A program made the translations under genes and the position numbers. A DNA stretch of 53,011 bases, taken from NCBI GenBank assembly GCA_004022145.1, contig RCNU01000031.1. The stretch is one strand, 5' to 3'. This stretch comes from Paecilomyces variotii. Taxonomy: Eukaryota. Under the pieces are notes generated by a model that saw nothing but the letters and a program-made list of their open reading frames with translations, searched no databases and was not told the DNA's origin. Positions 21,935-48,500 of the stretch are shown in pieces (within the stretch, counting starts at the first letter, position 1; each line of letters starts with the position of its first letter).

Positions 21935-22492
21935 ACAAGAACTTAGGCTATATTACGCGTGTCTCGTCCTTAAATCTGATTATTTAAGCTATTATAGTAG
22001 TTACATTCAGATTGCTAATATATATAGATTATAAGGCATAAGTTATTAAAAGACAGCTTTAATAGTTAATTAGAATTAACTAAATAATTATTACTGCCTA
22101 TAGTCGCATTATTATAGATATTATAAAAATAATAGAAAAGAGCTATTTATAATACCTTTTTTATATTATACCCCTAGATAAGACAGCTTTTATACTAGGC
22201 TATATATAATAATCTTAGCTATAGACAGCGGCCTTATTCTTTACTGTATATCTTCTAATTATTAATAATATTATTACTATATTATTATTATATTATTATT
22301 ACTATTATCTTTATCTATCTTAAAATTAGACCTATTCTGATATAGATATAGGTTCCTCCTTAGATCTTTTAGGCTTCTTAGGCTTTAGTATAGATATAGA
22401 TTAGGCCTTTAATTTATCTTTAGCTTAAATAAACTTTAAATAAGATATTAACTTAAAATAAAATAATATCTTAGACTTATCTTTAGGATTAT

Positions 22493-22659
22493 TGTTACAG
22501 TGTGGGGGATAAAGAAGTTATCCTTCTATTAGCTATATAGAGAAGTGACTATATAGCTAATCATTGCCTGAGGCTTCTATACCTTATATCTTTATGCCCT
22601 ATTAAGATAGCAGGCAGGCGATGCTAAGATAGTATTATATACCCGTGTTTATATTAGTA
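22493..22659 (-). repeat. 3' LTR of Gypsy A4
   Basis: Direct repeat of 33545-33711; retains the TGTTACAG terminus; adjacent to the PPT. Confidence 0.92.
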
Positions 22660-22844
22660 TGCCCTCTCTAAGAAAAATATTATTATCCTTAATAATAAAG
22701 TATAGAAATATATATATAGATATAGTATAAGATATAATTAGATATTTTTATAGTTTATCTCCTCCTATGTCTAGTTTGTGGGAACTAATATTATTTATAG
22801 AATTGCCTGCGCTTCTATAGTTCAGCTAGTAATTTAAGATATTA

Positions 22845-23000
22845 GTTATACTCTTAGATAAATTCTTAAGTATTAGCTAAGTCCTTAAAATAATATTATA
22901 TATTATAATAAATACTGTATCCCTTCTAATAGACTAGATATTTAATAATAGTCTTACCTTAGACTTGCCAGATATAATAATTAAATAGTGTCTTAATCTT
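22845..23000 (-). pseudogene. Chromodomain at the C-terminus of Gypsy A integrase
   Basis: The minus strand reads KYLVY*KGY...*YYFKDLANT*EFI*EY, which reverts to the chromodomain pattern YLVxWKGY...W....L.NA.E.I.EY. Confidence 0.8.
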
Positions 23001-25584
23001 ATAATAACTAATATTAATATTATCTATATTAATATATAATAGCAGAATATTATTGGAGGGTATAAGATATTTAAAGGGATTATTTAATATTATAATATTT
23101 CTAATAAGCTAGGATATCTAGCTAATATATAAGATATCTAATCCTGCGCTTAACTATAAGTAGTTTTATATACTATATTAATAACTTCTTGCTGAGGATA
23201 GCTATATTAGGGATATTATATTTATAATATAACCTTAGCAAGACCTTATTATTAAGGATAAAATAGATTAGCCGGTAATTCTTATTATATATATGTTTAG
23301 CATCTATAATAGCTAAATAAAGTGCTTTATATATATTAAGTTATAAGGTAAAGTCTTAGATTTCCTTATTATAGAGATTTGTAGTATTACCTAGTCTAAT
23401 ATTATATATTAAATTATATAGGGATTTTATTATAATAAATAATAGGCTAGAATTTAATATTAGTTATATTAATAGCAGAACCTTAGGTTAAGCTATAATA
23501 TCTTTTAGAATAGCTAGGTAGTATTACAAGATAATCTCAGCTATCTAATTAGTTTATTTTAATTATCTATTAGTCTGCGGGTAATATACTATTAAATAGA
23601 GCAATTTAGTATCAAGATACTTAAATAGGCCTTTTTATAAATCTAATAGAAACTTTAAATTATAATCTAATAGGATTATTAATAGGATACTCTAATTACT
23701 AATCTGGAGTTATTTAAGTAATGCTAATGCCTAGTCTTTAGCTGTCTATATATCTTATCCTAGTATAAATATAACTTACTTCATAAATTTGTAAGTAATA
23801 GTTAAGATTTAGTTATATAGCCCTATATCTAGCAATCCTATAATAAAGTCTATAATAATTATATAAAAAGGGATATTTAATATAAGAATAGGCTAATAGC
23901 TGCTGTAAGGTATATAATAATATATTTAATTTATTTGGTATAAATAGCAATGCTTAATATATATTTTAACTTGCTTTATAAATCTATAAATTATAAAGTT
24001 ATAAATATTAGTAATTATTTAGTGATACCTAGAGTATCCTATGCTATTATAAGCTATTTTAAGAATATTCTTAAGGACTAATTATAGTACACAGAGATAT
24101 TATATATTATTAGTATTAATTATATAAAGGAGTTTATTGCGAATTATAAAAAAAAGATATATAAAGTTTATATTATCTTATAGTATAGTGAGGATTTTAG
24201 ATTAATAAAGATTAGTTTTATAGCTATCTTTTAATTAGGTCTTAAACTTCTTTAATAACTTAATAAAAGTTATATTATATTATAGCTCGTCCTTAGTATT
24301 ATTAATATATATAGTCCTGAGAAATATAGTAGCTAAATAATATTTAATATCTTCTAATATAGGGGTATTTAGCTTAATAGAGAGTAATTTAAGATATAAC
24401 AGCATATCTATAATAATATTATTATATCCTGGCTTATATGTAAATATAAGGTTAAATCTCTATATATATTGCAATACTAAGATAAGGTATAGGTTAGTCT
24501 AATTTGTAGATATTAATTAGAGAGATATTTATTTAGCAATTGTAATTATAATGCTATAATCTATAAAAATAATCGGCGGCTTCTAACAGGTTTTAATAAT
24601 ATAATATATCTTATATAGTGCCTATACTAAATACGCTATCTCTATTTCTATTAGCCAATATAGATATTGTAAGCTCTAACTACCTTTTTAAGCTTATTAG
24701 CGATATCTAAGGGCCTATAAATGGTAATACCAATATTAAGTTTCCTCTTAAAGCTTAGATTATTGCCTTATATAGCTAGTCCCTTAGCTTTATTAGAGGA
24801 TAATAGTGCTAACTATGCTAGCGGTGCTATAATTAGGTTAATATAGAATATATTAATCTCTTTATACTTATTAACTAGACCTAAGTGTATTTTTTATAGA
24901 ATAGTCTATTCCTTATTTATAGTATTAATTGCCTAAATAAAGATAAAGTTAGTATTTATTAAATAGGCATATAGATTTATTCCTTAATAGTTAGGCTTAA
25001 AGAGATAATTATAATCTTCTGCGAGATATTTTTTAAAGTATATTAAAATATATATAGAACTGTTTAGTAGTACTACTATTTTATATATAGAATAGATTAA
25101 TTATAATAAATTATAATTTAATTTTATAGTAATTATTAGTAGGATATAGATATTCTTAACAGTAGTATAGGCTAAAGTAGTAAGATATATTAATATACTA
25201 TAGCAACTTATTATATTAATTTTAAGCAGAAAGTTTACTTTAAAATAATTAACTAAGTAGGCTTTAATTTTAAGTTAAAGTATTATTAGCTCAAAATAAT
25301 AGATAGCTGGATAATCTAATATAAGTTAGATATAGGCTAATAAGTTATATATTATAGGTTTTATTCTATTAATCTTTATTTTAGATATATAATAGATTTT
25401 TGCTTGTAGTATAACTTATTTAAAGAATATCTTATTAATTATTATTATAGAGCAATCTGAATTTAAGCAGATTAGCTTTGCCTTAATACTGCCAGTAATA
25501 TATACTTTTATTATAGTATAATACTATCTATAAAAGATATATCCTAAAGGAGCTTACTTAACTAGGGATTTAGTAATAATAAGT

Positions 25585-25723
25585 TCTTGGAGCTGACGAA
25601 GATGCTTAATTAAGGAAGCTATCTAGGGGGAAGCTGAACTGATCTATCTGGCCACTACTCTGATGACTAAGCTAACTGCTGGCGCGGGCGACTACTACTG
25701 GAGCCCCTAGGGGCACTGAAACA
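25585..25723 (-). repeat. 3' LTR of Copia
   Basis: Direct repeat of 30427-30565; also homologous to 49550-50131. Confidence 0.92.
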
Positions 25724-25783
25724 CCCCCTTTGACTGCGCTAGCAGACAGCCTGATTGCCTAATCAGGTAATTTATTTAACCCT

Positions 25784-28700
25784 TTAAACATCTAGTTTCC
25801 TCAACTTTATAAGCTCCTGAAACTCCTCAAATTTAATATAATCTAGTGGCTTTGTCAGGCTATCCGCTGGATTCATTTTACCGTCAATTTTCTATAGTTT
25901 GATCGTGTTATTAGCTGCTGTAGATCAAATAAAAAAATAGTAATTATTTAGCCATTTAGTAATCAGTTTATAACCCCTATTTCTAATTAAAATCATAGTA
26001 TTTACTGCATTAGTCCAGACGGGTATAGAGATCTCTAGATTTTATTTAAGATCTAGGGCGTAGGCCAGCTTTTTTATAAATATAGCTTCTTTTATTATAG
26101 AATCTAATATACAGAATTTAGCAATTATTATTAATAGAGCTATTATTTGCTGCTTCTTACTAGACTAGCTAATAGATACCCCTTTATATAGGATTATAAA
26201 TACTTTAGTTAAAATCTTGTTGGGGTTATTTTAGTAACTAGTATTTATATAAACTTTAATACCTATATTAGGATCTGCTTCTAATTTAATACTATAGTTA
26301 GAAGCTTGGCAGATATATTATAATAGATATTTTATTATTTTAATATCTTTATTATTTAGATTACTTACCTTTTATTATAAGCGGTTTATAGCTTAGGCTA
26401 GATCTAGCTATATTTTAATTGCTAACTAGCTTAACTTTCTAATAAGGGTTTAATATTTAATTTTAATATCCTTATTAGCTAGTTCCTCTAAAATCTTCGG
26501 TTTATATATTAATATTATAGGGACTTAGATTCTCGTCGGTTTATTATTATAGAAGCCGGAGTCAGTTAAAATAGCTGATATATAGTTAGCTTAGCTTATA
26601 GTAATTATTCTCTATTTCTAATCTTTATTAAGCTTGTAACCTAAGAAGTTAGAGGGTTTATTAAAGATCTTTATATTAAAGTAACTGCTTAAAATTATTA
26701 TAAATATATTAATATCCTCTTTTATAGATGCTGCTACAAGTATATTATTAATATAGATAATAATATACTATTCCCTGTCTAATATAAGAATATATAGATC
26801 TTCTTCTAGTGGCATAAAACCTATATTATAAAATTTATCTATAAGCGTTATATTCTATAGATTAGTAGATTCCTATAGTTTATATAGGGCGCAATAAAAT
26901 AGATAGATTTAATATTTCTTTATAGTAAATCCTATTAGCTATTATATATAGATTTATTTATTATTTAGTAGGGCGTTTAAATAAGCTGTAATAATATTAT
27001 ATTGAATCTAATATAACCTGTGTATAGTAATAAGGGTTAGAAATAGTTTAATAGCTGTCTCGCTTACTACTGGGCTATAGAATTATTTATATCTAATAGT
27101 TTGCTAAAAGTTACTATAAATTATTTATTTAGCTCTATATTCCTTTAGAAAGCTATTAGTGTTAGTCTTAATATTATATACTTATTTCCTTAATAGGATT
27201 TTAATATCTTTATTATTTAAATAAAGGACTAATAATTAGATCTGCTTAGTTTTAAGCTTCTATATTTAAGTCTCTATAGCTTATTGCTAATTATTAGCCT
27301 GCGGGGATTTAACTGCTTATTTATAGATACGGGGGATTTTAACTTTATAAGCTTATATAGGTTGTAGAGCTAGGGCTAAGATACTATAATATTTACCCTT
27401 TTTAGTCTTTATTACTTTCTTTGCTTAAGTTACTTAAATATTATAAGCTTGCTTATCTTTTAGCTAGGTGACTAGCTTTCTATCCTATATTAATTATAAT
27501 ATTTTCTCTATTAATTCTCTTATAAGTTGTAAGCTAATTAGATTAGTATAATTAATATCTTTATATTCCGCAGGATTAGTATTATAGAAATCTTTTTATA
27601 ATAGATTTAGAGAGGTCAGGATATCTTCAGATAGAGCTTAGTTAATTAGCTTATTTATCTAGGCATTTAGATTACCTATAGCAAGTTAGATAATATCTAT
27701 ATTCTTTTATATTTCTAATAATTACTATTTAATCTATTATTTAATCTAGGATATAAACAATAGAGTTCTAATATATTATTAGATAGTATCTTTAACTATT
27801 TAATAGATTAAATCGACTATTTATAGTTAATTCTTAATATATTGTCTTAGAATAGGTATTTCTGCTCTACTAGTAGTAGGCGCTAGACTCTTTAATATAG
27901 GATTTTTTATAATTGCAAGAGTTAATAGATTATTAGGATCTTTAAAAAATATAATATCTTTAGAGTATTTAATCTCTCCTATTTTAGGGATCTAGACCTT
28001 ATAGATATAACTATTATCTCCTTTATATTTGATTAAGTGTCCAATTTAGGCATAAAGTGCTATTTTAAATGCTTGCTTCCTGTCTTTTTTAGGTATATAG
28101 AGATATACTTAATAGCCCTAAACCTGTAAGTATTTTAAGGAGGGGTTTTTATTTAATATATTAAAATATTTCTTCTATTTTATAATAAGAGGTTTAGTTT
28201 TATTTTTTTACAGCAGTCTATTTATAATATAGATAGCAGTCTTAATTATAAATAGCTAGAGGTTTTTTAGGAGTCCTAAAGCTATTATTATTATATAAGC
28301 TAATAAGTTAAGATATCTTTTATAACATTCTAAAGTGCTATTACCCTCTGGGGTTTATAGAGATATTAGTTTAATCTTTAGTCTTTTAGCTTTAGTCTAA
28401 GACTTAAAGTTTAGGAATTCTCTCCTGCTATTAATTCTCTAGTATTATAGGTAATTATCTATTAGTAAGATGTTTTTAATCCCTTTAGCAAAAGAGATTA
28501 TATATTTTAAAGCTTTATCTTTTAATTTTAATATATAGATAAATTATATTCTTATAGCATTATCTATAATAATAAGATAATTAGTATATTCCTGAACTTT
28601 TAGCAGCTTTATAGGCTGGGTATTTATATAGAAAAATTCTGCTAGTTATAATATATAGGACTGGAGATCTCTAAATACTAGTTGCTTTATCTTTACTATA

Positions 28701-30250
28701 TAATATGCTTTATAATAAAAGTCTATATCCTTAGTAAGTTAGATAGCCATAGGGTTTAATTTAGTAATAGCTTTAAGCTTTATAATACTAGTATATCCTA
28801 TTCTCCTATATAGGAGTTCTAATAATATTATTAGTATAGCAATCTATCTGTAGAGCTTAAGCTATAGAATATCTTTATTTTTATATATATATTTAATAAT
28901 CTAATTAATATCTATATCTACTAGTCTATTATTTTGAGAGTTATACTATATTTTATATAGTATTTTGTTTTAGATTATAGAGAATAGATAGTATTTCTAC
29001 TTTAGCGTATATAGGGCGTAAATAAGAATATTATTTATATAACTGCTGTTAAGCTTAAGGTCTAGTCTAATAATATTTTTGCCTTTACTTTTGCCTAGAA
29101 TATTATTAGTATAGTTATATTTATATTATTATTTTTCTTTAGGGGTAAAGTCCCTATATTTAATAAACTAGGACTTATTATTGTATATATTTTTATATGC
29201 TCTTAAATCTACTATCCAGCTAGTTAATAGGACAGGTGTTACTAAAACTATTATCCTTATAAAGCTATTAAAATCTTTTTTTTCTTTATTTTATTTTTAT
29301 AGATTAGAGTTGACTTTTTTTTAATTTAGCAGAGTCTAGATACTCCTTAATAGGTATTATTAATTAGAGACTTTTTTTTAAGGTAATAGCAATCTGCAGA
29401 GTTATATTTAAATATATAGCAATATCTATATTTATCTTTAAAAAATAGCTTCTTCTCACATATCTTATAAGTAAAGTTTAAAGGGTCTTTACCTAAAGAT
29501 AGATTTTTTAATAATTTATTTAACTGCCTGATCTCCTAAATAAGAGTCTTATTTATAGATATAATAAGGACTGCTTAAGTGCTCTTATAAGATCTAGCTT
29601 AATTAATGGCTTTAAAGCTAAGTTATTAGAATTCCTCTATTATTATATCTATTAAGAGTTTATTCTGCTAAGCCTACTTAATATAATAAGAGTTAATCTA
29701 AGCTAATATTTTAGATTTAAGCTATTTAAGCATTAATATTACTGCACTAAAAGGTAAGAGAATTAAGCCTATATTATTTAATTTTATTATGCGATCTCTA
29801 AATTTAGTAATATATTGTTTAATTATTCTATATTAAGATCTGGTTATAATAACAGCTTATTAAAATATAAAGAATCTGCCTAAAGTTAAGCTGTAGTTAA
29901 TAATCTTTTTAATTGCTTTAATATATTTATTTATATAGATTAGTTTATTCAGCATAATTCTAATAGTTTTAATTAGCTTATAGTCTATCTAACCGCTAAT
30001 CTAGCTCTTTACTATTAAGCTAAGCTTCTTCTATATCTTATAGACTTTAGCTCTGTCTTAAAATATAAGTCTCCTAATAAATATATTAATCAGGTCTTTA
30101 TAATCTATAATTTTAAGGACTTCTTTAACTAGCCAGAGCTAGTTATTAAAATTACTGTTATTAATTAAATATTTGGCTATTATAAGTATTTTATCCTATA
30201 TAATCTTTAGCAGCTTTAATCCTTAATAAATTATAATTGCTAGAGCTGTT
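25784..30250 (-). pseudogene. Copia gag-pol polyprotein (RIP-inactivated)
   Basis: Zinc knuckle YRYCYIFKYNSADC (~29390-29430). Protease WIVDLRA (from WIVDSGA, ~29200). Integrase RINSRREF (from RIDGGREF) and TPEGNSTLE (~28330-28440). RT ALYKL*ES (from ALYGLRES, ~26880) and IYINNIL (from YVDD, ~26750). RNase H MNPADSLTKPL (~25845-25878). Confidence 0.92.
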
Positions 30251-30426
30251 GGGAGGGTTAATGCTAGAGATAGGGTTATTATCTTAAAGGATCGGTCTAT
30301 TCAAGGGTAAAGATCTGTTAGTTTAACTCCTTATCTGGGTATTGTTTAATTGAAGTTAAATTAAAGCTCTAAGGTATCCGGCTTGTCTATTTAAAATAGT
30401 AATGAGGCTGAGCCGGGCTTATAACC

Positions 30427-30565
30427 TCTTAGAGCTGACGAAAATGCTTAATTAAGGAAGCTATCTAGGGGGAAGCTAAACTGATCTATCTGGCCACTAC
30501 TCTGCTGACTAAGCTAACTGCTAGCGCGGGCGACTACTACTAGAGCCCCTAGGGGCACCGAAATA
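30427..30565 (-). repeat. 5' LTR of Copia
   Basis: Direct repeat of 25585-25723; the outer 2 nt are ambiguous with the TSD. Confidence 0.9.
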
Positions 30566-33544
30566 AGTTATAATATAGCCGTAGCTATTTATATAATAAT
30601 AGGTAATGCAATATTAGATAATGCGATATTAGATAATATAATATCAGAGGCTTTAATAATAAGAAAATGCGGTATTAATTTTTAATAATAATTAGTATTA
30701 TATAGATGATTATAGAGCTTATTATTTAATTAGAAGACTGCCTAGTATAGCTAGTATTTAAATAGAGGAGTAATTTATGGTGCGGTATAATTAATATAAG
30801 TATTATAATTATTTTTAATATAGTCTATATATTAAGGATTATTATATTTACCTTAGTAACTATTTTAATAGTAATAGCTATTATATTTTTTAAAAAAGTT
30901 AATTAGATCTAGGGTCTGATTAAGAGGTGCTATATTATATACTTCTAAGCTAAGTATATTATAACCTTATTAACTATAATTCTTATCTATAGTATTTATA
31001 GCTTAACCTATTCTAGTGTTTATATAGGCTGCAGCTTGCGATTATATTAAAAAAGAAAGATCTTAATTATTATTTCTATATTATTAGGAGTAGTTTTTAT
31101 TTAGGGCCTAATACTAATTTTAGTTATTATATTATAGGAATTAGCATAGCTATACTAGGGGTTAGCCTGTATTCTATATCTAATATTATTATATTTATAT
31201 ATTAGACTAATTTAGTCGGTAAGGTATTTTATAGCCTTAACTTCTAGTCTTTCTATCTCTAATCTGGTTATTAGTATTAGTATTATATTAGTTCTGCCTT
31301 AGTGCGACTAGAAAGGGAGAATAATAAGAAAAGGGAGTTTTTTAGTTATTATAATTATATTATTAGTAATAATATCTATTCTTATCTGCTTATTTTTACC
31401 AGACAGTATATGCTTTTTTAATATATTTAATAAAGTTAGAGAGTATAGTGTTAAGTTATAGTACCTATATATCTTATTTCAAAGATAGTAAAAATTTATT
31501 TTATGTAACTAAAAGCTAACTATATATCTTAATAAAGCCTGTAGTATGTAATAGTTATAATACTTATTAAATAAACCCTTAGGGTATTTAACCTGCAGCG
31601 ATATCTTACATAATATAGCATAAAGATTCTAATTATCTTATTACTATAGTAGTATTAAGCTTAAAGTGCTTTATTATTATAGAGATCTATCCCTCTTTAA
31701 TTAGGTAATTCTATAGGAAGTTATAATTATTATTAGATAATTCTGCTATATACTATTATAATATAAGGCCTTATAAAAATCTTTAGATATAGCCTTAGAC
31801 TAGGGCTTCTCCTTTTATTATAGTTAAGTTATAAATATAATTAATAAAAATATATATATTCCTATAATATATATAATTACCAACTATAACTATTAGGCCT
31901 ATACTAATATAGTCTATATTGCTAAAGTTAGAATAAAAGTATCTTAGCTCTATCTGCTTCTATAGTATACTATTAATTATAGCGCTTATTAGTATCCCTA
32001 GGGTAAATCTAGTATTTAGGTTTGCTAAAGAATTATAGTAAAGATTTTAATTTTAAACTAGTTATTATTATTAATCTTACTGTTATTAATGCTATTATTA
32101 TTAGTATTAGTATTGCTATTATTAATAGCTGGGTTAGCTATTATTCTAAGCTATATTATTTTGCGCTATATTATTCTAATTTATAAGATATTTTATTATT
32201 TAGCAATTTTAGTCTAATATAACCCTTATATTTTTTATTATTTACTGATTTAATTCTATTATCTGCTAGAATATCTTTATTAATATAGTATTAGAGTTAA
32301 TAGCTAGTAGTGCTAGAGATATAGCTAGGTTAGTAATATTTACTATATTATTAATATTTGCTACTAGCCGTGCTAAGATTTTATCTAGATAATATAGCAG
32401 TAGATCTAGGAAAGAATATAATAGGTTAAATAAGGCCCTTTAATATCTAGCTCCCTAGCTCTAGAAAATAAAATTCTAAAATCTAAGAATTAGATTAAGT
32501 AAGGCTAATTAAGGGGATATAGCAATTAGAATTTATAACCTAGATTACTTCTATTAGTATTTATCTTATAATAAAGTTATAAAGATGCTATAAAAATATA
32601 TAGAATATAGTTTACCTAATAGCTATATAAGTTCTAATATAAAGTTAGTTAAGTCTACTATAGCAGATTACTATTTTTAAAAAGTAAGATATTCTATTAA
32701 TATTATTATAAATCTGAGAAAGTCTTTAATAGCACTATAAAGGATAAACTGATCTATTACCTATAATATAGGAAATATAAATTATTTTACTTAAGGAGGT
32801 AATACCTATAGCTTAATCTAAAATACCTTAATATAAGCTAATAAAATATACTTTAAAAAATTATATCCTAGATAATAGGATAAAATAAAATTAATAAAAT
32901 TAATAGTTTTATAGTTAAGCTAATCCTTAAACTAAGAAGTTATTATTTAAAAAGCTGCTAAACTATATATAAGCTCTAATATTTCTCTAGATAATATAGG
33001 GAGATATTAGCTCTAATTTATCTCTTCTAAAGGCTAGCTTATTATAGAGGCTTAATTTTAGCTTTTCTAGGCGAGATACCTAATAAGAGAGATTAAAACT
33101 AGATTATAATAATACTGAAGATAAAAATAATAAAACTAATAATATAATATAGGATTCTAATAAAAAAGGTAGGGCTTTAGATATAAGTATTCTTAGCTAA
33201 CCTATAGTATCCCTAGGTGTAGGATATATAAAGAGATAGCTTAACACAAATATTTTAATAAGAGATATTAATTTAGGGCTAACGGAGGCAGAACTAGATA
33301 ATATTGAGATAAATCTTAATAAAAAGGATAGGTAATATAAAGACTTTTTAATAAAAAGGATAAGTAATATAAAGACTTCTAATAATAATAGATAACTTTA
33401 TATATAATAGGGAAGAGACTGCGGATAACTTACTAGCATCAGGAGCTAGCTTAATAATTAAATAATATAATAGATTACTATAATAGTTTTTAGGATACTC
33501 CTAATAATAGTTAGGCCCTAGATAACCTTAATATATTACTAAAT

Positions 33545-33711
33545 TATTATAGTATAGGGGATAAAAAAGTTATCCTTCTATTAGCTATATAAGGAAGTAA
33601 CTATATAGCTAATTATTGCCTGAGGCTTCTATACCTTATATCTTTATGCCCCATTAAGGTAGCAGGCAGGCGACGCTAAGGTAGTATTATATACCTATGT
33701 CTATGTTAATT
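33545..33711 (-). repeat. 5' LTR of Gypsy A4
   Basis: Direct repeat of 22493-22659, followed on the minus strand by the PBS relic and an interior matching A1/A3. Confidence 0.92.
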
Positions 33712-36700
33712 ATTATAGGCCTTATACTTTAGTTCTTTATTAGAGGCTCTTCTAAATATATTAAAGCTATTATTATTCTTAGAGTTATTATTAGCGCTAG
33801 AGGCATTTGCAAAATTTTTAAGTTTTTTCTTTACTCTTAACTATAAAAGAGAATAATAGCTTTAGTCTTTTAAGGGGTTTAAGTCTCTTAAGGAAGTTCT
33901 TATATTTAGTTCTAGCATTAATTATAAATAAAGCTAGTTAATTATTAATTACTTTTTAAGGGCTTAAAAAGATATTTATAAAGGTATTAGACCTTATTAA
34001 TTATTATAAGCCTTAAAAAGATAGGTCTTAAACTAGCAGTCTAGGGGAAATAAAATATTATAATTCTTTTACTGCGCTAATTACTACCTTATACTTATAT
34101 TTTTAAAGTAAGATTAGATAATTAATTAGCTGCGATATTACTATATTATCCCTAAAAATTTAGAGAAAAGATAGCGAGGTAATAGTAATATAAAGCTAGG
34201 GATTACTTAAGTATAAATAATAATTAATAACCTTGCTATTAATTTATATAATCTGCCTAATATTTAAGGCTTAGATATTAATCTAATATTTATTTTAAGG
34301 AATATTGCAGGCAATATAAAAGGTATTATAGATTATTTAATTATTAACCTTATTATTATATATAGTAATCTTAATAAAAAAGATTAAATATTTGCTATTA
34401 CTATTAGGGGTTAGGTCTATAACTTAGCCTATAACTTACCTACTGAAAAATAGCGTTGGCGGTATTAATTAAGGGATTAAATTAGTATACTTTTTAGAGT
34501 TAAGATTGCCTTTATAAGGAGAATATAAATTAGCCTTAATTATAATCTTAGGAGGGTTTAGCTTATTCTGCCTTAATATTAAGATCCCTAATATTATAGC
34601 GATAGCATTAATATAAAACTAAATATTACTATTAATATAATAATTAGTTATAAAATTAATTATATCTATATAGATTAAGTTCTTAAGAAATATATAGTCT
34701 TTAACTATTATATAGATATTAAAAATCTAGTTTATAGCTTATAATATAAGCAGATAAATATATAGTAGTATAATAATGCCTGTAATAGAGCAATAATTAA
34801 TATTAATAGAGCTAAATATAATAAAGAATATAATAGAATATAGTATAAAGATAATAAAAAAGACTAATAGTATTATAATCTTAAGAGAAAATAATATATA
34901 TTAGAATAAAATAATAGCAGGTAAAATATCTCTTATATATAGTAATTAGTAAGTATAATCTTAGAGAGTTATAATCTTAAGCTATAATTTTAATTTTAAG
35001 CGCTATAATTTTAATAGTATAGCCTTATACTCCTTATTATTTTATATTAATAATAAGGCCCTAATATCTTTTTTATAGCAGTATTATTTAATTTAATAAA
35101 GTTTAATTCTATTAAATTTAATAGCGCAGTCCTTATTAAGGGTAATAAATCTAAGGCTAAAAAATATAGCTAATAATAGATTTAACTATATAATAGAGAA
35201 GTACTAAAAAATCTTTAGATAGACTTTATTTATAATAACTTAAGCTTTATTATTTAGAAAAAAGAGTACTAATAAATTCTAAGCTTAAGTTATTTATAAT
35301 AGAGTAATATAAAACTGATTATAGATAAAGATAAGGATATATAAATTAATCCTAATATATTAAAAAAACTATCTTTAAGACTTATTAATAGTTATAGCAA
35401 ATGCTAAGTATATAGAGAACTAAAGATAATATAATATAAAGTAGAACTCCTTTAGAGCAGTTATTAGCTTTATTAAAAAATAAGGTAAGTCTCCTTATTA
35501 AATTTACTACTATTAAGCTAAATCTTAAGATAATAAATAATTATATATAGTAGGGTTAAGCAGGTATTATTATAGAGTCCTTTTAGGGAATTTATATTAT
35601 ATATTAGAATAAAAGAAGTCTCTATCTTTATTTATAGCTTATCTAAAGAGATCTTTAAGGAGATAATATTATAAAGGGTTTTAATACTAATCTTTTTATT
35701 AGGGAGATTATTATTAAGATTATAAGTATCTATAGAATATAATATAATTATATCCTTAGGGAATTAAGCTAATAAATAAGCATTAATAGATTTAATATCT
35801 ATATTCTAAGAGGTTAAGATAGCATAGCTATAGAAGAAATCTAGATTTTAAGAGATAGTCTATAAGTAATCTAGTAAGTAGATATAATTAATAAATTTAT
35901 CTATATTAATAGTCTAGTAAATAAAGAATAGTAGTAAGATATTATTAATAAACTGGGGCTTATAATTAAGCTAAGATAATTACTTAACTAACTAATAATT
36001 TTTAGGGTTAGTTATCTTTAGCTATATATTCTCTATAAATAATAATACCTGGGACTAATTAAAGATCTAGCTATATTAAAGATTTATTCTTATAATCTCT
36101 ATCTAATTATTATAGGGAATAATAGGTAGAATTTATTAGAAGTTACCCTTTAAGATAATTAGAATATTACTAAAAGGCTTCTTATATCTAGGCAGATTAT
36201 AGTAAAGGTCTTAAAAGGTTTAATTTATAATATTATAAATATAACAGTATATTATAGTTATCTTATTCTAAATAATTAAAAATATTATCTAGATTAACTC
36301 TGCTAAATAGGTGCTATAGTTAATAAAATAGGTTAATTATTTATTAATATTAATAAGGATATAAAATTATTTATAAGTAATATAATTCCCAGAGAGAAAT
36401 AATATAGTAATCTCTATTAAGGCAATATATAAAATAATCTTATCTTAAGATTATAGATAGCAATATAATATAATATAAAAAAAGATTTTCCTTATACTTT
36501 TAAGGCTATAAAAAAAGAAGTAAGTATTAGTTAAGGTATTTATAATAGCCTTTATAATTATATTAAAAGCCTAATATTAGTTCTAATTTAACTATAGGAT
36601 AAAGATTTTTACCTGTTAAATCTGCTAAATATAATTATAATTAGTCTTATATAAGATCTCTAGATTTAGAGTAGTCTAGTTTTAATTATTAAAATAGGAA

Positions 36701-36924
36701 GTTAAAAATCCTATAATATCTTTTTTTCTCCTTTAAGATTATTTATTATAAGGAAGAGGCTATAATTATAATAGGAAATATAGTCTAGGGTAAAATTATA
36801 TTATAATTAATTGCGCTTAATCTAATACTAGAGATTATTATAGATATTATTCTTATATTTCTCCTAGAGCCTATTAATATTAAAAAGGTCCTTAAAAGTT
36901 ATAACTATAAAAAGTAACTGCTAA

Positions 36925-37167
36925 TGTTATAGCGCTAACCTAGCACTTATATAGTAAGGAGACGGAGCGGGAAATTAACCGGCAGAACTCTTAACTGCTT
37001 ATACTATTTAAAAGTAGTTAGGAAATAAAAGATCTTATAAATAAAAGAATTAAGATTCTTTCTCTAAATTCTTTTTTTTTTCTCTCTCTAGCTTAAAGTT
37101 CTCTATTATACTATTTTACTAGATTAAAAGCTTTAATAAATCTAATTTAATCTGCTTAAGCATAATA
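36925..37167 (+). repeat. 5' LTR of element F
   Basis: Direct repeat of 39719-39961; TATA-like TATAAATAAAAG at ~37036. Confidence 0.92.
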
Positions 37168-39718
37168 TTATTTTAAGCTTATTCTATTATCTTATTTATT
37201 TTATTTTTATAAGGTTTTTTACTTAAGTATACTTTACTACTTATAAAATCTATCTAATATTAAATATTAGACTCTAAATTAGGCCTTATTATAGTAAAGC
37301 CTACTAATAAATTTAAATACCCCTAGGGTAATCTTAAGGATTATAATATATAGCTTAATTAAGAACTAAAGAAAAAAACTAATAATTATTATATCTTATT
37401 TTATTAAAATAATAAACTAATTAAGCTCTCTTAGGATAAGTTCTAAAAGCTCCTTAAAAAAAACCCTATTAAAATCTAGGATATATAGTATTATACTGCT
37501 ATTATTCTCCTAAAAAAGATTAATAATTTAAAATATATTAAATACCTAAACTAATATAAAATTAAATATAATTATAACCTTGCCCGATAAATCTATTAGG
37601 AGAAATATTATATAATAAAGGTAGAATAATAAATTGTAGAACTTATCTAAAAATAAAAGAAATATAAAGAGGCTCTTATTAATATAGCCCTTTATCTTAG
37701 ATATAAGAGTACCCTAAGACTTAAAGGTAAATAGCCTTAATATTCTATTAAGCTGCCTAACTCTCCCCTTCTTATTAATAGAAAAGATCTTAAGTTTAAT
37801 AATTAGTTATTATAGATTAAAAATAAGCTAAGAATAAATGCTGACTATTATAGAAGTAAATATTTTTATATTATATATATTTAAAGCCGCCTGGGTAAAA
37901 AGATTATAGCTTATATATCTTTAAGATTCTATAAAAATTTAAACCTCCCTTTTTAGACTACTGAACAAATATTTAACTATCTTTAAGCTATATTTTATAA
38001 CTTAAATTAATAATAGATTATAAGATATTAATTTATTAATCTATATATAAAAATATATTAAAAGTATAATAGTTTCCTTATAGAGTTTATAAGGCTAATA
38101 GAAGAAATAGGTATCTACCCTAATAATTACTAACTTAAGATATATAATAAGATTACTCTATTTCTTAGAAGTCTTATTATTAGCCAGTATTATTAAATTA
38201 AGGACTTTAATAATTTTAAAGATATTTATTAAAGCTAGTTAAACTAAGAACTTAAATATAAGAACTTTCTCCTAGACTTTATCTAACTAACTAGTAATAG
38301 TTTATCTATCCTTAAAATTAATACCAGAACCTCTATTGCCGATTATAAGACTTTTATAAAGAAAAAAAAAGTACTTTTTTTATAAAGCAAAGGGGTATCT
38401 TATTATTAATTGCTTATTTAAGAAAGTAATAATAGATATTAAAAATCTAGAGATTAAGAAGAAGGAGAATAAATAGGACTTAGAAAAAGCTAATCTCTAG
38501 ACTAAGACTCTAACCTAGGGGTTAATAGGGAATTAGCAGAGATTAATCTTAATCGCCTCTTAGATAGTAATTACCTTATTAAACCTAGCTTAATTTATAA
38601 AAATAGATATAATATTAAGCTCTTTACCCTATTAGATTTTAGAGCAAATAAGCTCTGTTTTTTTAATAGCTTATTAGTCCTATTAATTATTTAATTCTTA
38701 AATATCTCTTTAAAACCTCTAAGCCGACCTACATTTATTAATAGCTATAATAATAGAACTAAAGAATAAATAGGCTATATATTTATTATTAACTTAAAGA
38801 TTAATAAAAGAATCTATTTAAACTTCCTAATACTAGTTACTGACCTAGGTTATTATAATTTAATCCTTAGATAAAAATAGATAGCTAAAGAGTTTATTCT
38901 TTTAAACACTTAAAACTAATAATTAATTTAGCTGTATAATAATCTATAAACTTATTAATTTTAATAAGAGCTAATTGCTATAAAGAAGGATCTAATAAGA
39001 TTACTCTTAAACCCTAAATATTAATAAGATACTAATAGAAGAGACTAATAGATAGAGAAATAGATCTAGATTTTAAAATAAAAGAATTCTCCCTATTACT
39101 AGCTGCTATAAACTAAATAAGTTAATATTTAATTAGCTTTAATAAAAATATAATATAAATTAAGAGACTAATCTAATCTCCTGCCTTTAATAATTATAAA
39201 ACTATATCCTCCTATAATAAATATAGGGAAAATACTAGATATTATATATATAGAAGTTAAGGGGTTTTAATAAGTATTATATAAGAAGGATATAAAAGTC
39301 TTTATTATTAGCTTATATAAGATTAATAAGATTATTAAATAGAAGTCCCCGATTATATAAGAAGAATAGGAACTCTTAAAGCTAATCTATAAATATCTTC
39401 CTATAGTCTATAAGGACTTCTTAGATATTTTCTCTAAGCAAGCATTAAACGAATTGCCTCCTTACCGGCCCTACGACTACAAGATAGAACTTAAAGGGGA
39501 AATCCCCCTAGGATATTAACCTCTCTATAAACAATCGCTGCAAGAGTTACAGACGCTGAAGCTCCGGGATTTTCACGACGAATTCCCTAATAAACCCGGG
39601 CCGCAAGCTAATCTAGACTATTAGATCAACTGCGCTAATAAAGATCTTAATCTAGAAGACCGATAGGATAATAATTATCTTGCCAATTTAGGGACGAATC
39701 GGCCTAAATAGGGGGTAA

Positions 39719-39961
39719 TATTACGGCGCTGACCCAGCGCCTATATAGTAAGGAGATAGAGTAGGAAATTAACCGGCAGAACCCTTAACCGCCTATACTA
39801 TTTAGAAGCAGTTAGGAAATAAAGGATTCTATAAATAAAAGAATTAGGATTCCTTCCTTAAATTCTTTTCCTTTTCTCTCTTTAGCTTAAAGTTCTCTAT
39901 TATACTGCCTTACTAGATTAGAAGCTTTAATAAATCTGATTTAGTCTGCTTAAGCGTAACA
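39719..39961 (+). repeat. 3' LTR of element F
   Basis: Direct repeat of 36925-37167; ends in CA followed by the TSD. Confidence 0.92.
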
Positions 39962-42142
39962 GCTAAAGCTAATAGTTAATATCTATAAAATATATCTTTT
40001 TAAAATATAGCTTCTATTTATCTTTATTTTATAAGATCTTATAGATATAGCAGGCTTTATAAAAGGTTAAGTAGATATAACTATTTATTATATAAAGATT
40101 CTTAAAGCTTATAGATAATTATATTACTATAAGAAGATAATATAGAAAATATATCTCCCTATAGAATAATAATACTTATATTATATAATTAATCTAAAAG
40201 GCGCTAGTTATATAATATAATTACTTCTTATTTTTATTGCTCTAGATAAAATAATAAAAGAATTTATAAAATAGTAATAGTCTAAGATTTAATTATAAAG
40301 GCTATAACTAGTATAAGATTATATATTATAATAAAAGCATACCTACCCTTTTATTAATATTATACTTAAAAATACTAATAGATATAATATTACCCTCTTT
40401 ATATAATTAGCAACTTAACTAAAGATAGCCTCTATATTATAAGTTATAGAATAGTTATTTAGGAAATAAATATAAAGGGCTTATATATTAGGGTTAATCT
40501 TATAGGTTAAGAATTTAAATAGATATTATATAGCCTTTAATGCTTTAATATAATAGCTATTAATATAGTCTTAGATCTTATTAATACTTATATTTAATTT
40601 AATAATAGTATAATTAGGCCCCTTATAGATATATTTATATAGATATTTAATTGCCTTAATATTATTATAGATCTCTATATTAATATAAGCCTTATACTAC
40701 TAGGTTAGGTAAAGGTTATAGGGAATAACTTATTTATTACTAATCTCTAGGAAGTTATTTACTTAGATAGGATCTTTAATCTTAATATAGGCTATATTCT
40801 ATTAATAATATTTTAAATAAAAGTTATTAATTAGAGAAGTTTCTTAAGTATTTTAGCATTCTATTAATCTCTTTTATATAAAATACTTTAAGATTATAAT
40901 AATTATATAATTAATAAATAAGATTAGTAATTATAAGATTATAGAGATTAAGAGTTTATTATATCTAGGCTTTTATTTAAGCAGTAGTTGCAATATTATT
41001 AATAATAGGCCTAAGAAATATAATATTAAGAATCTCTATAAAAACTAACTTATTAATATATTTAATAGTTAAAGACTTAAAACTACTCTTTATTTAAAGA
41101 AGGAAATAAGTATAAGAAATATACTTCTAGTATTTAATTACTTAAATATTACTAATATATTCTCTAAAAATATTATCTTTTTATAATTTATTTATAAGCT
41201 CTTAGAATTTAAAATAAAAATATTATTATTATCTCTAATAAGTTTAGCCTTAATTTTATCTTAATAAGAGTTAGTAATAAATATAATAAATAGATAAAAC
41301 TTTTTAAACTCTTAAACTATAGCTATAAAGTCTTAATAATATTAATATATAAAGTAATTACTATTTATAAAATATAATAAAAAGATATATAGTTTATTTA
41401 TAGCAATAGGATTAATGCCTATAATAATAATAAAGGCTATCTTAATAATATTATACTTTTTAGCCTAAAGTTATTTCTAATTTTACTTAAATTAATTTAG
41501 CTTATATTATTTTAAAGCTAATTAAAGATTTATAATAAACTGCTAGAATAAATAATTATTATAATATAAAAGATTAAAGCTTTTAGTCTATTAAAATATA
41601 AAGAAGTAGTAATAAAGTTATAATATTATTTATATTTATTTATGCTCTGCGCCGCTCTAAATAATATCCTTAAGCTTAAGCCTCTAATACTAGCCCCTGC
41701 CATCTTAAAGGAAAAAAAGAATATATTAAAGGGAGATATATAAAGGATATAAATAATAGATAGTAATTAAATATTGCCTTATATTAACTTAGCGAGTAAT
41801 AGAGAAATCTTTAAGGGCTACTATAATTTAGTCCTTATCTTTAAATATATTATTTAAATATAATACTAAATCGCGTTTAAAAATAATATAGGGCATATTA
41901 TTATTATCTCTAGAGATATTATTATTTTAATTCCTAGAAGAGGTAATATTTAAATTATTATTTTATTTATTTACTATTAGCTATTGCGTAAAGGGAGATT
42001 TATTAAGATAAAGGCAGATATTATAAAAACTTGCTTAATTATACTCTTTAGCAATATTAGAGATAAAGCCTATTAACTTTATTTAAGCACTTACTAAATT
42101 ATAGGGATATTTACTATCTATATTAGGGATTAATTATAACTA

Positions 42143-42437
42143 ATCGGCCCTTTATTAAGACCGCGCGCAGCGTAATCTCGCTATCTTAACGCTACCAACT
42201 ATCTCAATACAAATTTCTGTAAATATTATTATTTTTTAGTTTTTAATTAACTAGATATTGTAGAACTAGTATTTTAGATCTAGTTTCCGATATTTCTTTA
42301 AGAATTTAGCATTGTGGTTAATTAGGAGCAATCTGGAAAGATTTAAAATAATGCATTTTTATATAGTATTCGTTAAGATAGTTAGTAGCGTTAAGATAGC
42401 GGGACCGCGCTGCGCGCGGTCTTAATAAAGGGCCGAT
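42143..42437. mobile_element. MITE, second family, ~295 bp with GC-rich ~65-bp TIRs
   Basis: TA|ATCGGCCCTTTATTAAGACCGCGCGCAGCG...CGCTGCGCGCGGTCTTAATAAAGGGCCGAT|TA. The first 30 bp are perfectly inverted and each TIR carries two CTATCTYAA sub-repeats. The TSD is TA or CTAA/TTAA. Confidence 0.88.
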
Positions 42438-45400
42438 TAAGGGGTAAGATATAGATATTATAATCTATAGCTAGTATAATATTAAAGAATATTATAGGCA
42501 TATTAAAAAACTTTTTAAAAGAGATTAATTCTGCGTAATAATTAATCTAAGTTCTATATTATTTTAATATATAATTAAGATAATAATATATATTACTAAT
42601 ATATTTACTCTATCTTTATAGGATTTAAAAAATAAAGCTATATAAAGGAAAGAGAAGTTCTACTTAAAGGGCTAATTTAATAATAGATTATACTCTATAA
42701 CTAGAAGATCTATTAGTATTATTATAAGGCTAAATACTAATTACTCTTATAAGATAAAGATATAAAGGCTAATATTATATTAATAATATAAATATCCTTA
42801 TAGAATATAATTATATTAAGATTATTAATATTAAAATACTCTCTTAATAATATAAGCAGTTCTTATATAGGCTCTATATTAATACTTAATATTATACTAC
42901 TATTCTTATAGTAATAGTTAAAGATTATATAGCCTTAAGTAATCTTATTTTACTAAAATAAGATATAGTAATATTAATATATAATATCTATATATTTAAA
43001 GTATAGAGATTATATTTAAGTAATAAGAAATAAAAGGTAATAGAGATATTTTTAATTATTATATACCTTATACTATTAGTTATATTAGGGGGTCTGCTTT
43101 ATAAGGCTTATATATAATTATTATAAATATTATAGGCAGAATTCTTAATAAGATAATTCTAATATTATCTGTATATATAGTATAAAGGTTAATATATTAA
43201 TTATATAGGCTTAAGAGTAGAGAGTAAAAGCCGCTTATAAATACTATAGAATTAATAGTTTAAAGATTAGGATTAAGATTAAGACTTTTTATACTAATAT
43301 GCTTAGGCGCGTAAAAAGATCTTATAGTATACTTTTTATACTAGTATATATAATAGATTAAAGGTTATAAAAGTAGTTTACAGAGAGGATTTAATTAAGA
43401 AACTTATTAATTTTAACCTAGATTTATTTAATATTAGGGTTTTTAATATAAGATTTTTTATAAGAATATCTATTAATAATAGTAAAGGTAATAAAGGCGA
43501 TTATTTTATTAATACTATAGAAAGTACTAGAGAAGATATATAAAGTATTAAAGCTGCTTTAATTTATTAATAAAAATAGCTAATAGAGGTAAAAGATATA
43601 AGTTAAGGTTTTATTATTATAGGGCTTATAGCTAATATATATTATTATTATATATATATAATAATAGATTTATTTAAGACTTATATATATATTATAACTA
43701 TAATATATATAATACTTATAATTATTAATTTATCTTAATTCTCCTACTATAAGATAATATTTATAGCTATTATATATATATTTAAGAGAAAAAAAACTAT
43801 AATAATTATATTAAATATAATATAAAGATATAGCCTAAGTAAATATAATAAATAATTAGTATATAAGCCTATATAAAATATATATTAATATACTATAAAT
43901 GCCTTATATAAGCATTTTAATAAATCTCCCTTAATTATAATCTCTATTATAATCTCTCTAAATATAGATTAATAGATTAAAACAATATATAATACTACTA
44001 ATAATTGTTAAAGATAGCCCGGGCAATATTTAAAGCATAATCCTTATTTTAATATTAAGATAAATAGAATAATAATATAGTAATATAATAAGATAATAAA
44101 ATAATTAAAAAATAAGGTAAAATATTAAAACAAGGTAAGATATTATTATAGAAAACCTAGAGAATCTTATATTAGCACTTATAGATAATAAAAAATAGGT
44201 TAATATTAGTATTTATAAATAATAGAAAAAGGAGGTAAATAATCTTAAGAGTAATTTAAAAAATTAGACTTAATATATTATAAGTAATATTTTACTTCTC
44301 TGCTAGAAAGCTTTATATTAATATCTTAATATCTTACCGATATATTTTATTTCTCTAAATCTTATATTATAAATAGATTATGCTAAAGCATTATAGAAAA
44401 TATTATAGGTTTATTTATTTAGCCTTTATTAAATATTATTAATATTAAATATTATTAAGTAAAAATAGCTATATTAATAATTTATATAATAATTTAAGGT
44501 AATATCTTAATATAATAAGAGAACTTATTATAAGTTACCTCTACTATTATAGTTAAGGCTTAATAAAGGCTATATTAAAAAATATAATTAGTAAAGAGCT
44601 AGCTTATATAATAAATATCTCTTTTTTTAAATATAATTAACTACTTACTAATCTTTAACTTATATAGCTTAATAATAGTATTAATATATCTTATTTTTAG
44701 CCCTTAAATTAAGTAATATTAAAGACTTAAAGAGTAATATTAAAGACTTAAAGATACTTAAGTTATTTAATAATATTAATAATTATTATAATAAGGTAAT
44801 ATAATTAAAGTAATTAAGAAAGTCTCTCTTTAAAGTATTAAAAAGGTATTATTATAATAAGACTTATTATAATAATAGTTCTTAAAGAGTACTTATATTA
44901 AGATTTATACTTTTTTTCTCTATATTTAAATTAGCCTCTAATAGTTATATTATAATTAAGACCCAGATTATTAATAATAAGATATAGGTATTTATAGATA
45001 AAGGTAACTTAAAGATAGTATTAAATATATTATATTAGTTTAAAAAAGAAAGTCTTAAAATAGGCTATAATATCTGCCTCTAGTAATACTACTATTAATA
45101 TTATATAAGATATTTTATATTTAATTATAGTTTCCTTTATTATTAGTTAGTAGTTTATACTTAGAAATAAATAGAAGAATTAAATAGAATAAGAACTTTA
45201 ACCTAAATATAGTATTATATTATAATATATATATTTTTAATATATAGATATAATAATAGTACTAAGTATAAAAAAAATTAATATTTATATAAATAATTAT
45301 TATATGTAATTATATTATAATATTATAATAAATAAAAAGGCTTAAAAGTTAATAAGTTTAAAAGTTTTAATATTTTTACAAGTAGTAGTTTTATTTAATT

Positions 45401-45546
45401 ATACTATAGTATACTTAGTAATTTAATAAATAAAAAGGCTAAAGATATAGTTTTTATATATATAATGCTTTAATAGGTTAAATCTAAGCTAATAAGAGAC
45501 TTAAATAATACTGCGCGCTTAAAGTTTTATATTATTTACTTAGATT

Positions 45547-48500
45547 AAAACCTTTTCTTATTATTCTCTTTTCTTATTAAATTCTTTCTTATTAAATTCT
45601 TTAAGGTAGAATTAAAGTAATATTAATAATATTAACTAGACTAGAGGTAAAGCCTTATAATAGTTTATTTAGACTAAGAATTAAAGCTATAACTATTTTA
45701 AGTATATAAATATAATGCGCTATTAATAGAACTAATTTAATATATAAACCTAATAATATTAGACTTAAAATCTAGGCTAACTCTTAATATAACTATACTA
45801 GTTCTTATAGTATAATAATTAAAACTAATAATATTAAGTATTAAACTAGTATAGAAATAATAATTAAAGCTCTTATCTTTTAATATAGTCTTAAGCTATA
45901 GTCTATTTAAATGCTAAAATAGAGTAAGTTATAAATATTATAGATAGGAACTATAGTTAGTAAGGTTATAATATATTTAGGTTAAAAATATATAATATAA
46001 TACCTTTTAATTAAACCCTAGATTTAATTAATTTTTCTAATAAATATAATAATTATTATTATTAAGATAGTTATTAAGATAAATATAATACTTATATTAA
46101 TTATATTATATTATAAATATTATAGATAGAAACTATAGTTAATAAGATTATAATATATTTAAGTTAAAAATATATAATATAATACCTTTTAATTAAACCC
46201 TAGATCTAATTAATTTTTCTAATAAATATAATAATTATTATTATTAAGATAGTTATTAAGATAAATATAATAATTCTTAATATATAGATTATATTAAAGA
46301 TAACTATAATACTTATATTAATTATATTATATTATAGATTACTCTTATATTTAAATACTAGCTATACTAAATAATCTTCTAATTAAATAATAAGCTTTAA
46401 TTATTTATATAATACTAATTATAATTAAAAATTAATACTATATTTCTTTATTATTAAAGCTTCTAATATTATATTATCTATTAATATATATATAGCTATA
46501 GCTATATTATAACTTATTATTATTAAGTCTCTAATTAAATAAGCTTCTTTTAAATATATCTTTTATAGATAATATTATATTATAGTAAAAATATATATTA
46601 CTAGTAATATTAAGGCAGAGCTAATTTATTTAAATTTAAGTTATTCTATAATAATAATTAATAAGATATTTCTTAAGCGAGTTATATTATAAGCAAAATT
46701 TTATTATATATTTAAAATAAAGATTAATAAGATAAGATCTATAGTATATAACTTATTAACTTATATTTAACTTATTTTAAATTATCTAGCTATTTATTAT
46801 TTTAAGCTAATAATATTTTAGTTTAAAATTAAAGCTTACTTAATTAATTATTTTAAAATAAATCTTTTACTTAAAATTAATATAATAAATTACTATAATA
46901 TATTAATATACTTTATTATTTTAACCTATATTACTATTAAAGATATTTATATTTTATTAAAGATTACTATAAAATTAAACTATAGTTTATTATAATTAGT
47001 TTATTTTATATATAAAATAATAGTATTATTAAATAATTCTATATATATCTTAATATATTTTAAAGAATACTTTATAAAAGATTATAATTATATTTTTAAG
47101 CCTAATTATTAAGGTATAAATCTCTATACCTATTTAGTAAATACTAACTTTATCTTTATTTAGGCTATTAATATTATAAATAAAGAATAGGCTATTCTAT
47201 AGAAGATATACTTAAGTCTAGTTAATAAGTATAAGAAGACTAATATATTCTATATTAATCTAATTATAATACTGCTAATATAGTTAGCGCTATTATCTCT
47301 TAATAAAACTAAGAGATTAGCTATTTAAAGTAATAATTTAAGCCTTAAGAAAAAACTTAATATTAATATTATTATTTATAGACCCTTAAATATTATAAAT
47401 AAATTTAAGAAAATAATTAGAGCTTATTTATCTAGTTAAACTATAGATTTACTAATATTCCCTTAGATTAATAGATAATAATCTTATTAAAGGAAGGTTA
47501 AGAATTAAATATCTTTTAAGTATATTAAGATTTACTCTCTTAGCCTTAAAGATTATAAAGTTATTAATTAAACCTTTAATAAGCTATATTAATAGAGAAG
47601 GATAAAATATACTATTAATTATATACTAAGCGAATATCTTATATTTATTATTTAATATAATATTAAATATAATAGTAAAATAATTTATAAGGGTAAAGTA
47701 ATTATAGATATTTATAGTCTAAATTATATTATTAGACTTAATACTTATTCTCTCCTATTATAAGAGAATATTATTATATTTATAATAAAAAAATATATTA
47801 TTTTAATATTTAATATAGTATCTTTCTAGTATTAATATTATATTTAATATAATTATAGAAACTAACTATTTATTATATTATATAGAGAATAAGAGATCTT
47901 TAATATTATTATTATAGGCTTTTATAATATATTAATATATATCTAGTAATAAATAAATTATTACCTATATATTTTCTATAAATTTATAAAGATATATATT
48001 AATAATATTATAGTCGTCTTTAATATAGTTAATAATTATTATATATATTTATATAAAGTCTTTAAGAAAATATAAACTAAATATTAAGCTTAATTTTAAG
48101 AAGTTCTTTATAAGATTTCTCTTTATATAACTATTAAGTTACTATATTAATTTATTAGGAATAAATATTATTAATAAGAAGATAAAGACTATAATTAATA
48201 TCTTATTTCTATATAGCTTAAGCCTTAAAGTTATATCTTAGCTTAATAAAATAGTTTAAATAATATATTCTTTAATATATTAAGATTATATAATTATTAT
48301 AAGATTAGAAGATAATATTTTTTAATAAAGCCTTTATAAAAGTTAAGATATAGTAGAGTTTTATAAAGAATATAATCTTAGCTATATTCTTATAAGCTAA
48401 GATAAATATTTATAATATTATTTAAAAATATTTTAATAATTTATTCTTTTTTATATATTATAACTTAAAGCGCTAGCTTTACTTTAATATTAATACTAGT

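Follow-up and report, generated by a model that had tools for sequence, protein, structure and literature searches.

The question raised by this locus is what underlies three nested insertions in a contig of Paecilomyces variotii. The window analysed here is the whole contig RCNU01000031.1 (53,011 bp; C25 of assembly G000, 30.1 Mb in 86 contigs), and an earlier note, made from the sequence alone, had described the host element in it as unclassified or new, with genes on two divergent strands. We find a Helitron at 21936-45544 on the minus strand, of the autonomous type and inactivated by repeat-induced point mutation (RIP), as defined by its ends, an empty site and comparison with sibling copies. 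The favoured reading, to which we assign a probability of roughly 85%, is a dead Helitron1-type transposon whose second gene (ORF2; ORF, open reading frame) encodes the element's own binding protein for single-stranded DNA (ssDNA), with two oligonucleotide-binding (OB) folds and a disordered, partly acidic tail; the identity as a Helitron, taken by itself, is practically certain. The superfamily is a known one, and the new part is the second gene behind RepHel, which resembles genes for single-stranded DNA-binding proteins (SSB). The element is an ordinary transposon class that RIP had made unreadable by eye, and ORF2 is the part of lasting value.

Extent, copies and RIP damage

Splicing out the three nested inserts rejoined a single sequence of 9,049 bp, as had been proposed, and this sequence is colinear with two copies on contig C67 that have the same ends (sibling A, 139616-148696; sibling B, approximately 961748-971300). 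The ends and the three duplications given before were right to within 2 bases (21936 and 45544, compared with 21935 and 45546). Both siblings lack two of the inserts, element F and a miniature inverted-repeat transposable element (MITE), and are uninterrupted across the insertion site of the third, a long terminal repeat (LTR) retrotransposon. Sibling B is flanked on both sides by DNA of 40-55% GC, and DBF4-like and NmrA-like genes were found near one sibling in GC-normal DNA; taken with RIP, these genes suggest a filamentous fungal host. Siblings A and B are 82% identical, with a transition/transversion ratio of 7.4; identity of the window copy to the two is 68-71%, and its transversions, at about 12%, are far more numerous than those between the siblings, which places it in a separate subfamily. 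A 320-bp piece of another repeat lies near the 5' end of sibling B (C67:970556-970878; L058).

The window has 11-31% GC, its composite RIP index is positive in each full kilobase, and one stop-free frame in it reaches 100 codons. When the siblings were compared, C positions differed at 342 of 404 CpA, 151 of 187 CpG, 693 of 1,589 CpT and 214 of 630 CpC, with the contexts taken from neighbours that were already mutated; this pattern fits RIP. The view that the element had been repeated and hit by RIP is borne out by the siblings, by their transition/transversion ratio and by the excess at CpA over CpC. Every Helitron copy found in the assembly is broken.

Termini and target site

The 5' terminus (45533-45544, minus strand) starts with TC after a target A, and the 3' terminus (21936-21975, minus strand) comprises a GC hairpin, a 9-nt spacer, CTTG and a target T. 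When ends were searched for in 20 fetched loci and the window, 12 hits were obtained for the 5' end, of which two coincide, so that 11 ends are distinct; A precedes all 11, and the start is TC in 10 (window included) and TT in one. Six distinct 3' ends were found (that of the window by direct look), four with CTTG and two with CTTA, each followed by T. The hairpin is intact in both siblings and degraded in the window copy; raw folding energies of the last 45 nt are -11.6 and -14.9 kcal/mol for the siblings and -0.8 kcal/mol for the window. The empty site is another copy of the target repeat (window 5715-5775), which is continuous across A|T with nothing duplicated, and no terminal inverted repeat was seen at the element ends. 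Tandem repeats with a unit of about 98 bp lie subterminally, at approximately 45100-45410; they are degraded in the window and clear in the siblings (three copies spaced 98 in sibling B; Tandem Repeats Finder period 90 in sibling A), and window 45206-45406 matches them.

Helitron1 elements are described as having a 5' TC, a 3' CTRR, a hairpin roughly 10 nt from that 3' end and an AT target without duplication (PMC5148889, PMC4289320). The element of the window shares with them the 5' TC, the hairpin, here about 9 nt from the 3' terminus, the insertion at A|T without duplication, and Rep and PIF1 in a single gene. The label of an unclassified or new element thus gives way to Helitron1, on the termini, the AT target and RepHel; the earlier note had itself held that an end-to-end match to a known family of transposable elements would overturn its proposal, and at the level of the superfamily a match exists.

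Some Helitrons that share this 5' end and match at the 3' end are short and non-autonomous, namely one of about 770 bp (L067:5479-6246, contig C28) and a similar one split by an insert of about 5.9 kb (L065:1624-8347, contig C56); short elements with these ends were probably moved by this RepHel.

RepHel and the coding strand

The RepHel gene extends over 42886-35210 on the minus strand, where a profile built from the top 35 of the RepHel proteins found is colinear across the MITE and element F. Its N-terminal part is at 42440-42886 (minus strand; profile positions 36-175, independent E-value (iE) 3e-7), and its start probably lies farther up, near 43200. The Rep (HUH/Y2) region at 39967-42142 (minus strand) is interrupted by stops and frameshifts; three Rep motif regions (motif 1, about 41338-41228; motif 2, about 41219-41031; tyrosine motif, about 40786-40532; all minus strand) align to intact RepHel, and the HUH histidines appear as tyrosines in the aligned copies, which is the outcome that C-to-T change would give. 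The Pfam family Helitron_like_N stays below the cut-off in the window (E 0.021) and passes it at the matching place in the siblings (1.1e-17 and 1.7e-9). The PIF1-type helicase and the C-terminus are at 35210-36924 (minus strand), with a Pfam PIF1 match at 36010-36591 on the minus strand (E 3.4e-17 and 7e-17 in two scans). When the helicase half of a sibling was used as query, 79 matches were found among 4,438 candidates (best 34% identity, E 1.5e-127); all 79 have PIF1, most also have Helitron_like_N, and the nearest are RepHel proteins of fungi, plants and animals. Two RepHel proteins, P0083 and P0086 (cluster of P0004), are filed under a Bacteroidetes metagenome-assembled genome and probably represent mis-binned eukaryotic contigs.

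Plus-strand coding DNA at about 34200-43600, divergent from the minus-strand frame, had been claimed for the element. A plus-strand gene in this interval was rejected, since no Pfam family was matched in the six plus-strand frames of 33710-36925 and 39960-45600 and codon phase favours the minus strand. In the codon-phase test, stops common to all three copies were counted per implied frame in 25 gap-free blocks; four RepHel blocks reached p<=0.0014, with 5 v 15, 9 v 23, 18 v 33 and 7 v 10 shared stops in the minus and the plus frames, respectively, and four other blocks reached p 0.03-0.05. Because both genes match on the minus strand and shared stops are fewer in the minus frames, RepHel and ORF2 are in tandem on the minus strand and not divergent, and the apparent plus-strand coding DNA is the reverse of these two genes.

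A second gene behind RepHel

ORF2 lies behind RepHel on the same strand (approximately 34819-22215, minus strand). Its folded part, with two predicted beta domains of which the second is predicted as an OB fold, is at 34043-34819 (minus strand) and requires no intron. The low-complexity tail starts one frameshift away from it (33714-34041, minus strand) and ends at 22215-22492 (minus strand), in frame across the LTR insert and with an end motif that matches the end of protein P0080. The acidic minus-strand frame that had been pointed out before does exist, and does continue across the LTR insert, but it is the tail of this gene and not a gene of its own.

P0080 (KAJ9223012.1) is an intact 386-aa hypothetical protein of P. 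variotii (three cluster members). When the sequence that follows RepHel was made into a profile from its three copies, P0080 was the sole match among 1.84 billion representatives (E 3.2e-29). Window 34807-34043 aligns to it in a single frame (40% identity; 41% with E 4.1e-47 in a search of the assembly), sibling A aligns in one frame to residues 77-383, and the D/E/S-rich tail of P0080 corresponds to the acidic frame of the window. There is no intact ORF2 in the assembly: five matches to P0080 were found among 11 candidates, all with stops; four belong to the three long Helitron copies, and the remaining one to a fragment on contig C8. ORF2 is therefore borne by the element, as all matches in the assembly are in Helitron copies or fragments. 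A four-row alignment found eight proteins and thereby seven further intact relatives (P0097-P0103), of which P0097 has one match in the assembly, within sibling A; an ORF2 profile without the Paecilomyces row still detects ORF2 of the window (iE 4.9e-7). P0080 matched itself alone among 2,489 candidates from a set of 5.8 billion, and 138 pattern matches in metagenome contigs gave no confirmed relative. The assembly also has, on C1, C8 and C9, a Helitron family that is more distant and in which weak traces of the ORF2 N-terminus follow RepHel (iE 6.6e-6 to 3.7e-4).

Over the helicase, the more distant RIP-hit Helitrons observed in the assembly share about 65% identity with the window (L061, C8:263000-269500; L031/L032, C1:3899000-3906000; L035, C9; L075, C1:4208696).

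A scan of metagenomes with related RepHels gave 79 loci; the RepHel end is included in 41 of them, and in 20 of the 41 it is followed by 900 nt or more. One of them, L115, is an intact Helitron with an open RepHel of 1,418 aa, a 330-aa ORF2 relative 66 bases behind RepHel (E 7.9e-24 among 2,398 ORFs; 26% protein identity) and then a 3' end of the form hairpin-CTTG|T; of the 79 loci it is also the closest to the RepHel of sibling A (505 bits; next, 456). L115 provides an intact RepHel-ORF2 pair together with its 3' end, and is suited to a direct test. Candidate 3' ends were seen at two other loci: L185 has hairpin-CTTG|T 327 nt behind RepHel, too close for a second gene, and L126 has hairpin-CTAG|T 1,947 nt behind RepHel, with an unrelated 219-aa ORF before the end.

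Predicted fold and role of ORF2

A single-sequence fold of P0080 was unusable (predicted local distance difference test (pLDDT) 36). AlphaFold with the eight-row alignment gave a mean pLDDT of 48.6, with the model usable only for residues 101-218 (pLDDT about 53-87 per block). A Foldseek search with these residues gave 85 matches at E<=0.001, with SSB and PriB structures at the top (best, Deinococcus radiodurans SSB, E 7.3e-6). In VIA-align, in which Z 7-8 is common by chance and the top rows are near ties, mitochondrial SSB reached Z 9.0 (root-mean-square deviation 3.3, 93 aligned), PriB 8.6 and archaeal RPA 8.5. Comparisons with the Atlas were made through intact ORF2 relatives: for the L115 protein, whose Atlas model has pLDDT 0.57, the nearest clusters are unnamed ones from basidiomycetes and mucoromycetes (TM-score 0.67-0.72; Atlas feature scores of the clusters nearest ORF2, 0.90-0.91), followed by SSB-family clusters (200-304 aa; TM-score 0.54-0.62) over residues 4-235 and hence over both domains. 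From these models an OB fold in ORF2 appears very probable, with domain 2 supported and a second such fold in domain 1 likely. A role as the element's ssDNA-binding helper, as predicted from fold and context, seems somewhat better than an even bet.

Several observations weigh against this picture. The 3' end is CTTG and departs from the strict CTRR of Helitron1, and the element differs from described Helitron1 also in its separate ORF2 that no Pfam family matches; we nevertheless class it as a Helitron1 variant because CTTG is reported in HELPO2 and also ends L115. In block 34592-34066, which is among those with p 0.03-0.05, the codon-phase test did not favour the frame of ORF2. A clear ORF2 relative was found in one of the 20 testable metagenomic loci (L115), a count from which intron-split relatives may escape; a weak lead comes from L180, where RepHel is followed on its own strand by a gene of several exons (7900-8974), in which a motif resembles the second domain of ORF2 without significant similarity (hhalign probability 3.3%, E 0.013). 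In Pfam, no family was matched at E<=1 by any of the eight ORF2 members, SSB (PF00436) and RPA70 included, and the best sequence match in the PDB had E 0.19. The first domain of P0080 (residues 1-100) has pLDDT <50, the top two rows in VIA-align are RNA-editing OB proteins (Z 9.6 and 9.3), domains of tRNA synthetases and archaeal RPA are level to within 1 Z, OB folds serve other jobs, and the Atlas feature scores to the SSB clusters are just 0.76-0.77.

In established Helitron biology, Rep nicks the 5' end at TC, the PIF1-type helicase peels one strand away, and the 3' hairpin signals the stop, after which the strand is joined into AT elsewhere; the element would have moved by such single-strand transfer from the 5' TC to the hairpin (PMC5148889, PMC6431247). 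ORF2 may have coated and protected the displaced strand, as is thought for the RPA-like genes of plant Helitrons. Its acidic tail might bind partners, by analogy with bacterial SSB. After the Helitron had inserted into an older repeat, two LTR elements and the MITE inserted into it, and RIP inactivated all copies found.

Known Helitrons and alternative explanations

Helitrons are well known from ascomycetes (PMC13535494, PMC13004909, bioRxiv 10.1101/2025.11.13.688278). No SSB or OB-fold gene of a fungal Helitron was found in the literature covered, which did not extend to subscription journals and Repbase. HELPO2 of Pleurotus ostreatus also ends in CTTG but carries RepHel only, without a second gene, whereas HELPO1 has, like the present element, extra genes behind RepHel; these are of unknown function, were called captured and have no domain assigned, and relatives of one of them, capB, also adjoin RepHel in other basidiomycetes (PMC4289320). 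The cap genes and ORF2 are compared here by description. Helitron-borne RPA genes occur in plants, cnidarians and fish (PMC6431247). Such elements are similar in bringing their own OB-fold protein (for ORF2, a predicted fold only), but ORF2 is a stand-alone gene of 330-386 aa in a fungal host, without a sequence match to RPA and with its best structural matches of the SSB/PriB-like kind, though with archaeal RPA within 1 Z. Helitron2/Helentron elements such as FoHeli of Fusarium oxysporum (PMC5148889) are alike in the RepHel gene and in a host of the filamentous ascomycete type. The present element differs from them in that no asymmetric terminal inverted repeat was seen and in a target that is AT and not T-rich; no Pfam family for the Helentron endonuclease domain was matched in the element frames scanned, a search of low power.

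The HELPO1 case leads to the best-surviving alternative, i.e. that the element is a Helitron whose ORF2 was captured from a host through 3' read-through and has no role in transposition. The position of ORF2, past RepHel and before the 3' end, is that of captured genes (PMC4289320); 19 of the 20 testable related loci lack ORF2, and P. variotii has an intact annotated gene. Against capture, the assembly lacks an intact ORF2 copy, ORF2 of L115 is at the same position despite its low protein identity, and traces are present behind RepHel in the more distant family; that ORF2 was kept there for so long agrees with its serving the element, and we regard capture as improbable. With ORF2 taken as a gene of the element, a wider proposal is tentative and somewhat less likely than not: a fungal Helitron lineage may encode, as a fixed second gene, a tandem-OB ssDNA-binding protein that is invisible to Pfam and of the SSB/PriB and not the RPA70 type, and the large unnamed basidiomycete and mucoromycete clusters, perhaps also the fungal 'captured genes' without a known function that follow RepHel, may be the same accessory gene. 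If this were true, part of the fungal 'gene capture' counts would represent core transposition machinery. If ORF2 does bind ssDNA and aid transposition, this would put a name to a fungal hypothetical family and change the reading of some 'captured' genes.

A new or non-Helitron large DNA element with divergent genes is very improbable. A large DNA mobile element had been proposed, with Helitron among the candidates, and this much holds; the Starship-like, Academ and CACTA/Plavaka-like candidates found no support. Such an element would leave room for the approximately 1.9 kb at 43200-45100 that are unaccounted for, and RIP damage does weaken family searches. There is, however, neither a terminal inverted repeat nor a target duplication, RepHel occupies the middle, and no plus-strand signal was obtained. 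The Pfam check suggested earlier recovered PIF1 but no tyrosine recombinase, DDE, RecQ or Plavaka family in the 12 frames of 33710-36925 and 39960-45600, a search whose sensitivity RIP lowers. In the 5' region itself (43200-45100), which is common to the siblings, some frames look protein-like by eye, and searches for a third gene gave no Pfam family (six frames, sibling A), no block with p<0.05 and no match among 544 ORFs of related loci.

A further alternative is host DNA that occurs in a single copy and was mutated by RIP leakage, or else a mosaic whose pieces are unrelated. It would suit the low identity and the transversions of the window copy, and has almost no probability given two colinear full-length copies that share ends, one of them in GC-normal DNA, and the recurrence of its termini (11 distinct 5' and six distinct 3' ends).

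Nested insertions and other repeats

The largest insert is an LTR retrotransposon at 22493-33708 (strand not assigned), flanked by the duplication ATTAT at 22488-22492 and 33709-33713. No Pfam family was matched in the six frames of 22493-27500, so that its earlier designation as a Gypsy element (Gypsy A4) rests on that note and on motifs judged by eye. An LTR-bounded insert lies within it at about 25579-30563; Pfam gave no match for this insert, and its minus-strand frames have motifs, seen by eye, which we take to be Copia-like reverse transcriptase and RNase H. The family of this insert also interrupts another Helitron copy, on contig C30.

Element F, at 36925-39961 on the plus strand, is an LTR element with LTRs of about 240 bp and with the duplication GCTAA at 36920-36924 and 39962-39966. 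It is an internally deleted copy of a family of about 5.85 kb; relatives on C1, C33, C22 and C27 have about 3-4 kb extra between query positions 2625 and 2630-2676, and GC at the deletion (39530-39720) is unusually high for the contig. The first 1.1 kb of element F also recurs by itself on C67 (23506-112459), in at least eight plus-strand copies within 90 kb; these possibly form a tandem array, or are LTR-like ends that belong to some larger element.

The MITE, at 42143-42437, has long inverted arms and a TA duplication on both sides, and further copies were found in the assembly. The best-kept of 25 inverted repeats listed is a separate 660-bp element at 16942-17604, with arms of 200 bp that are 97% complementary.

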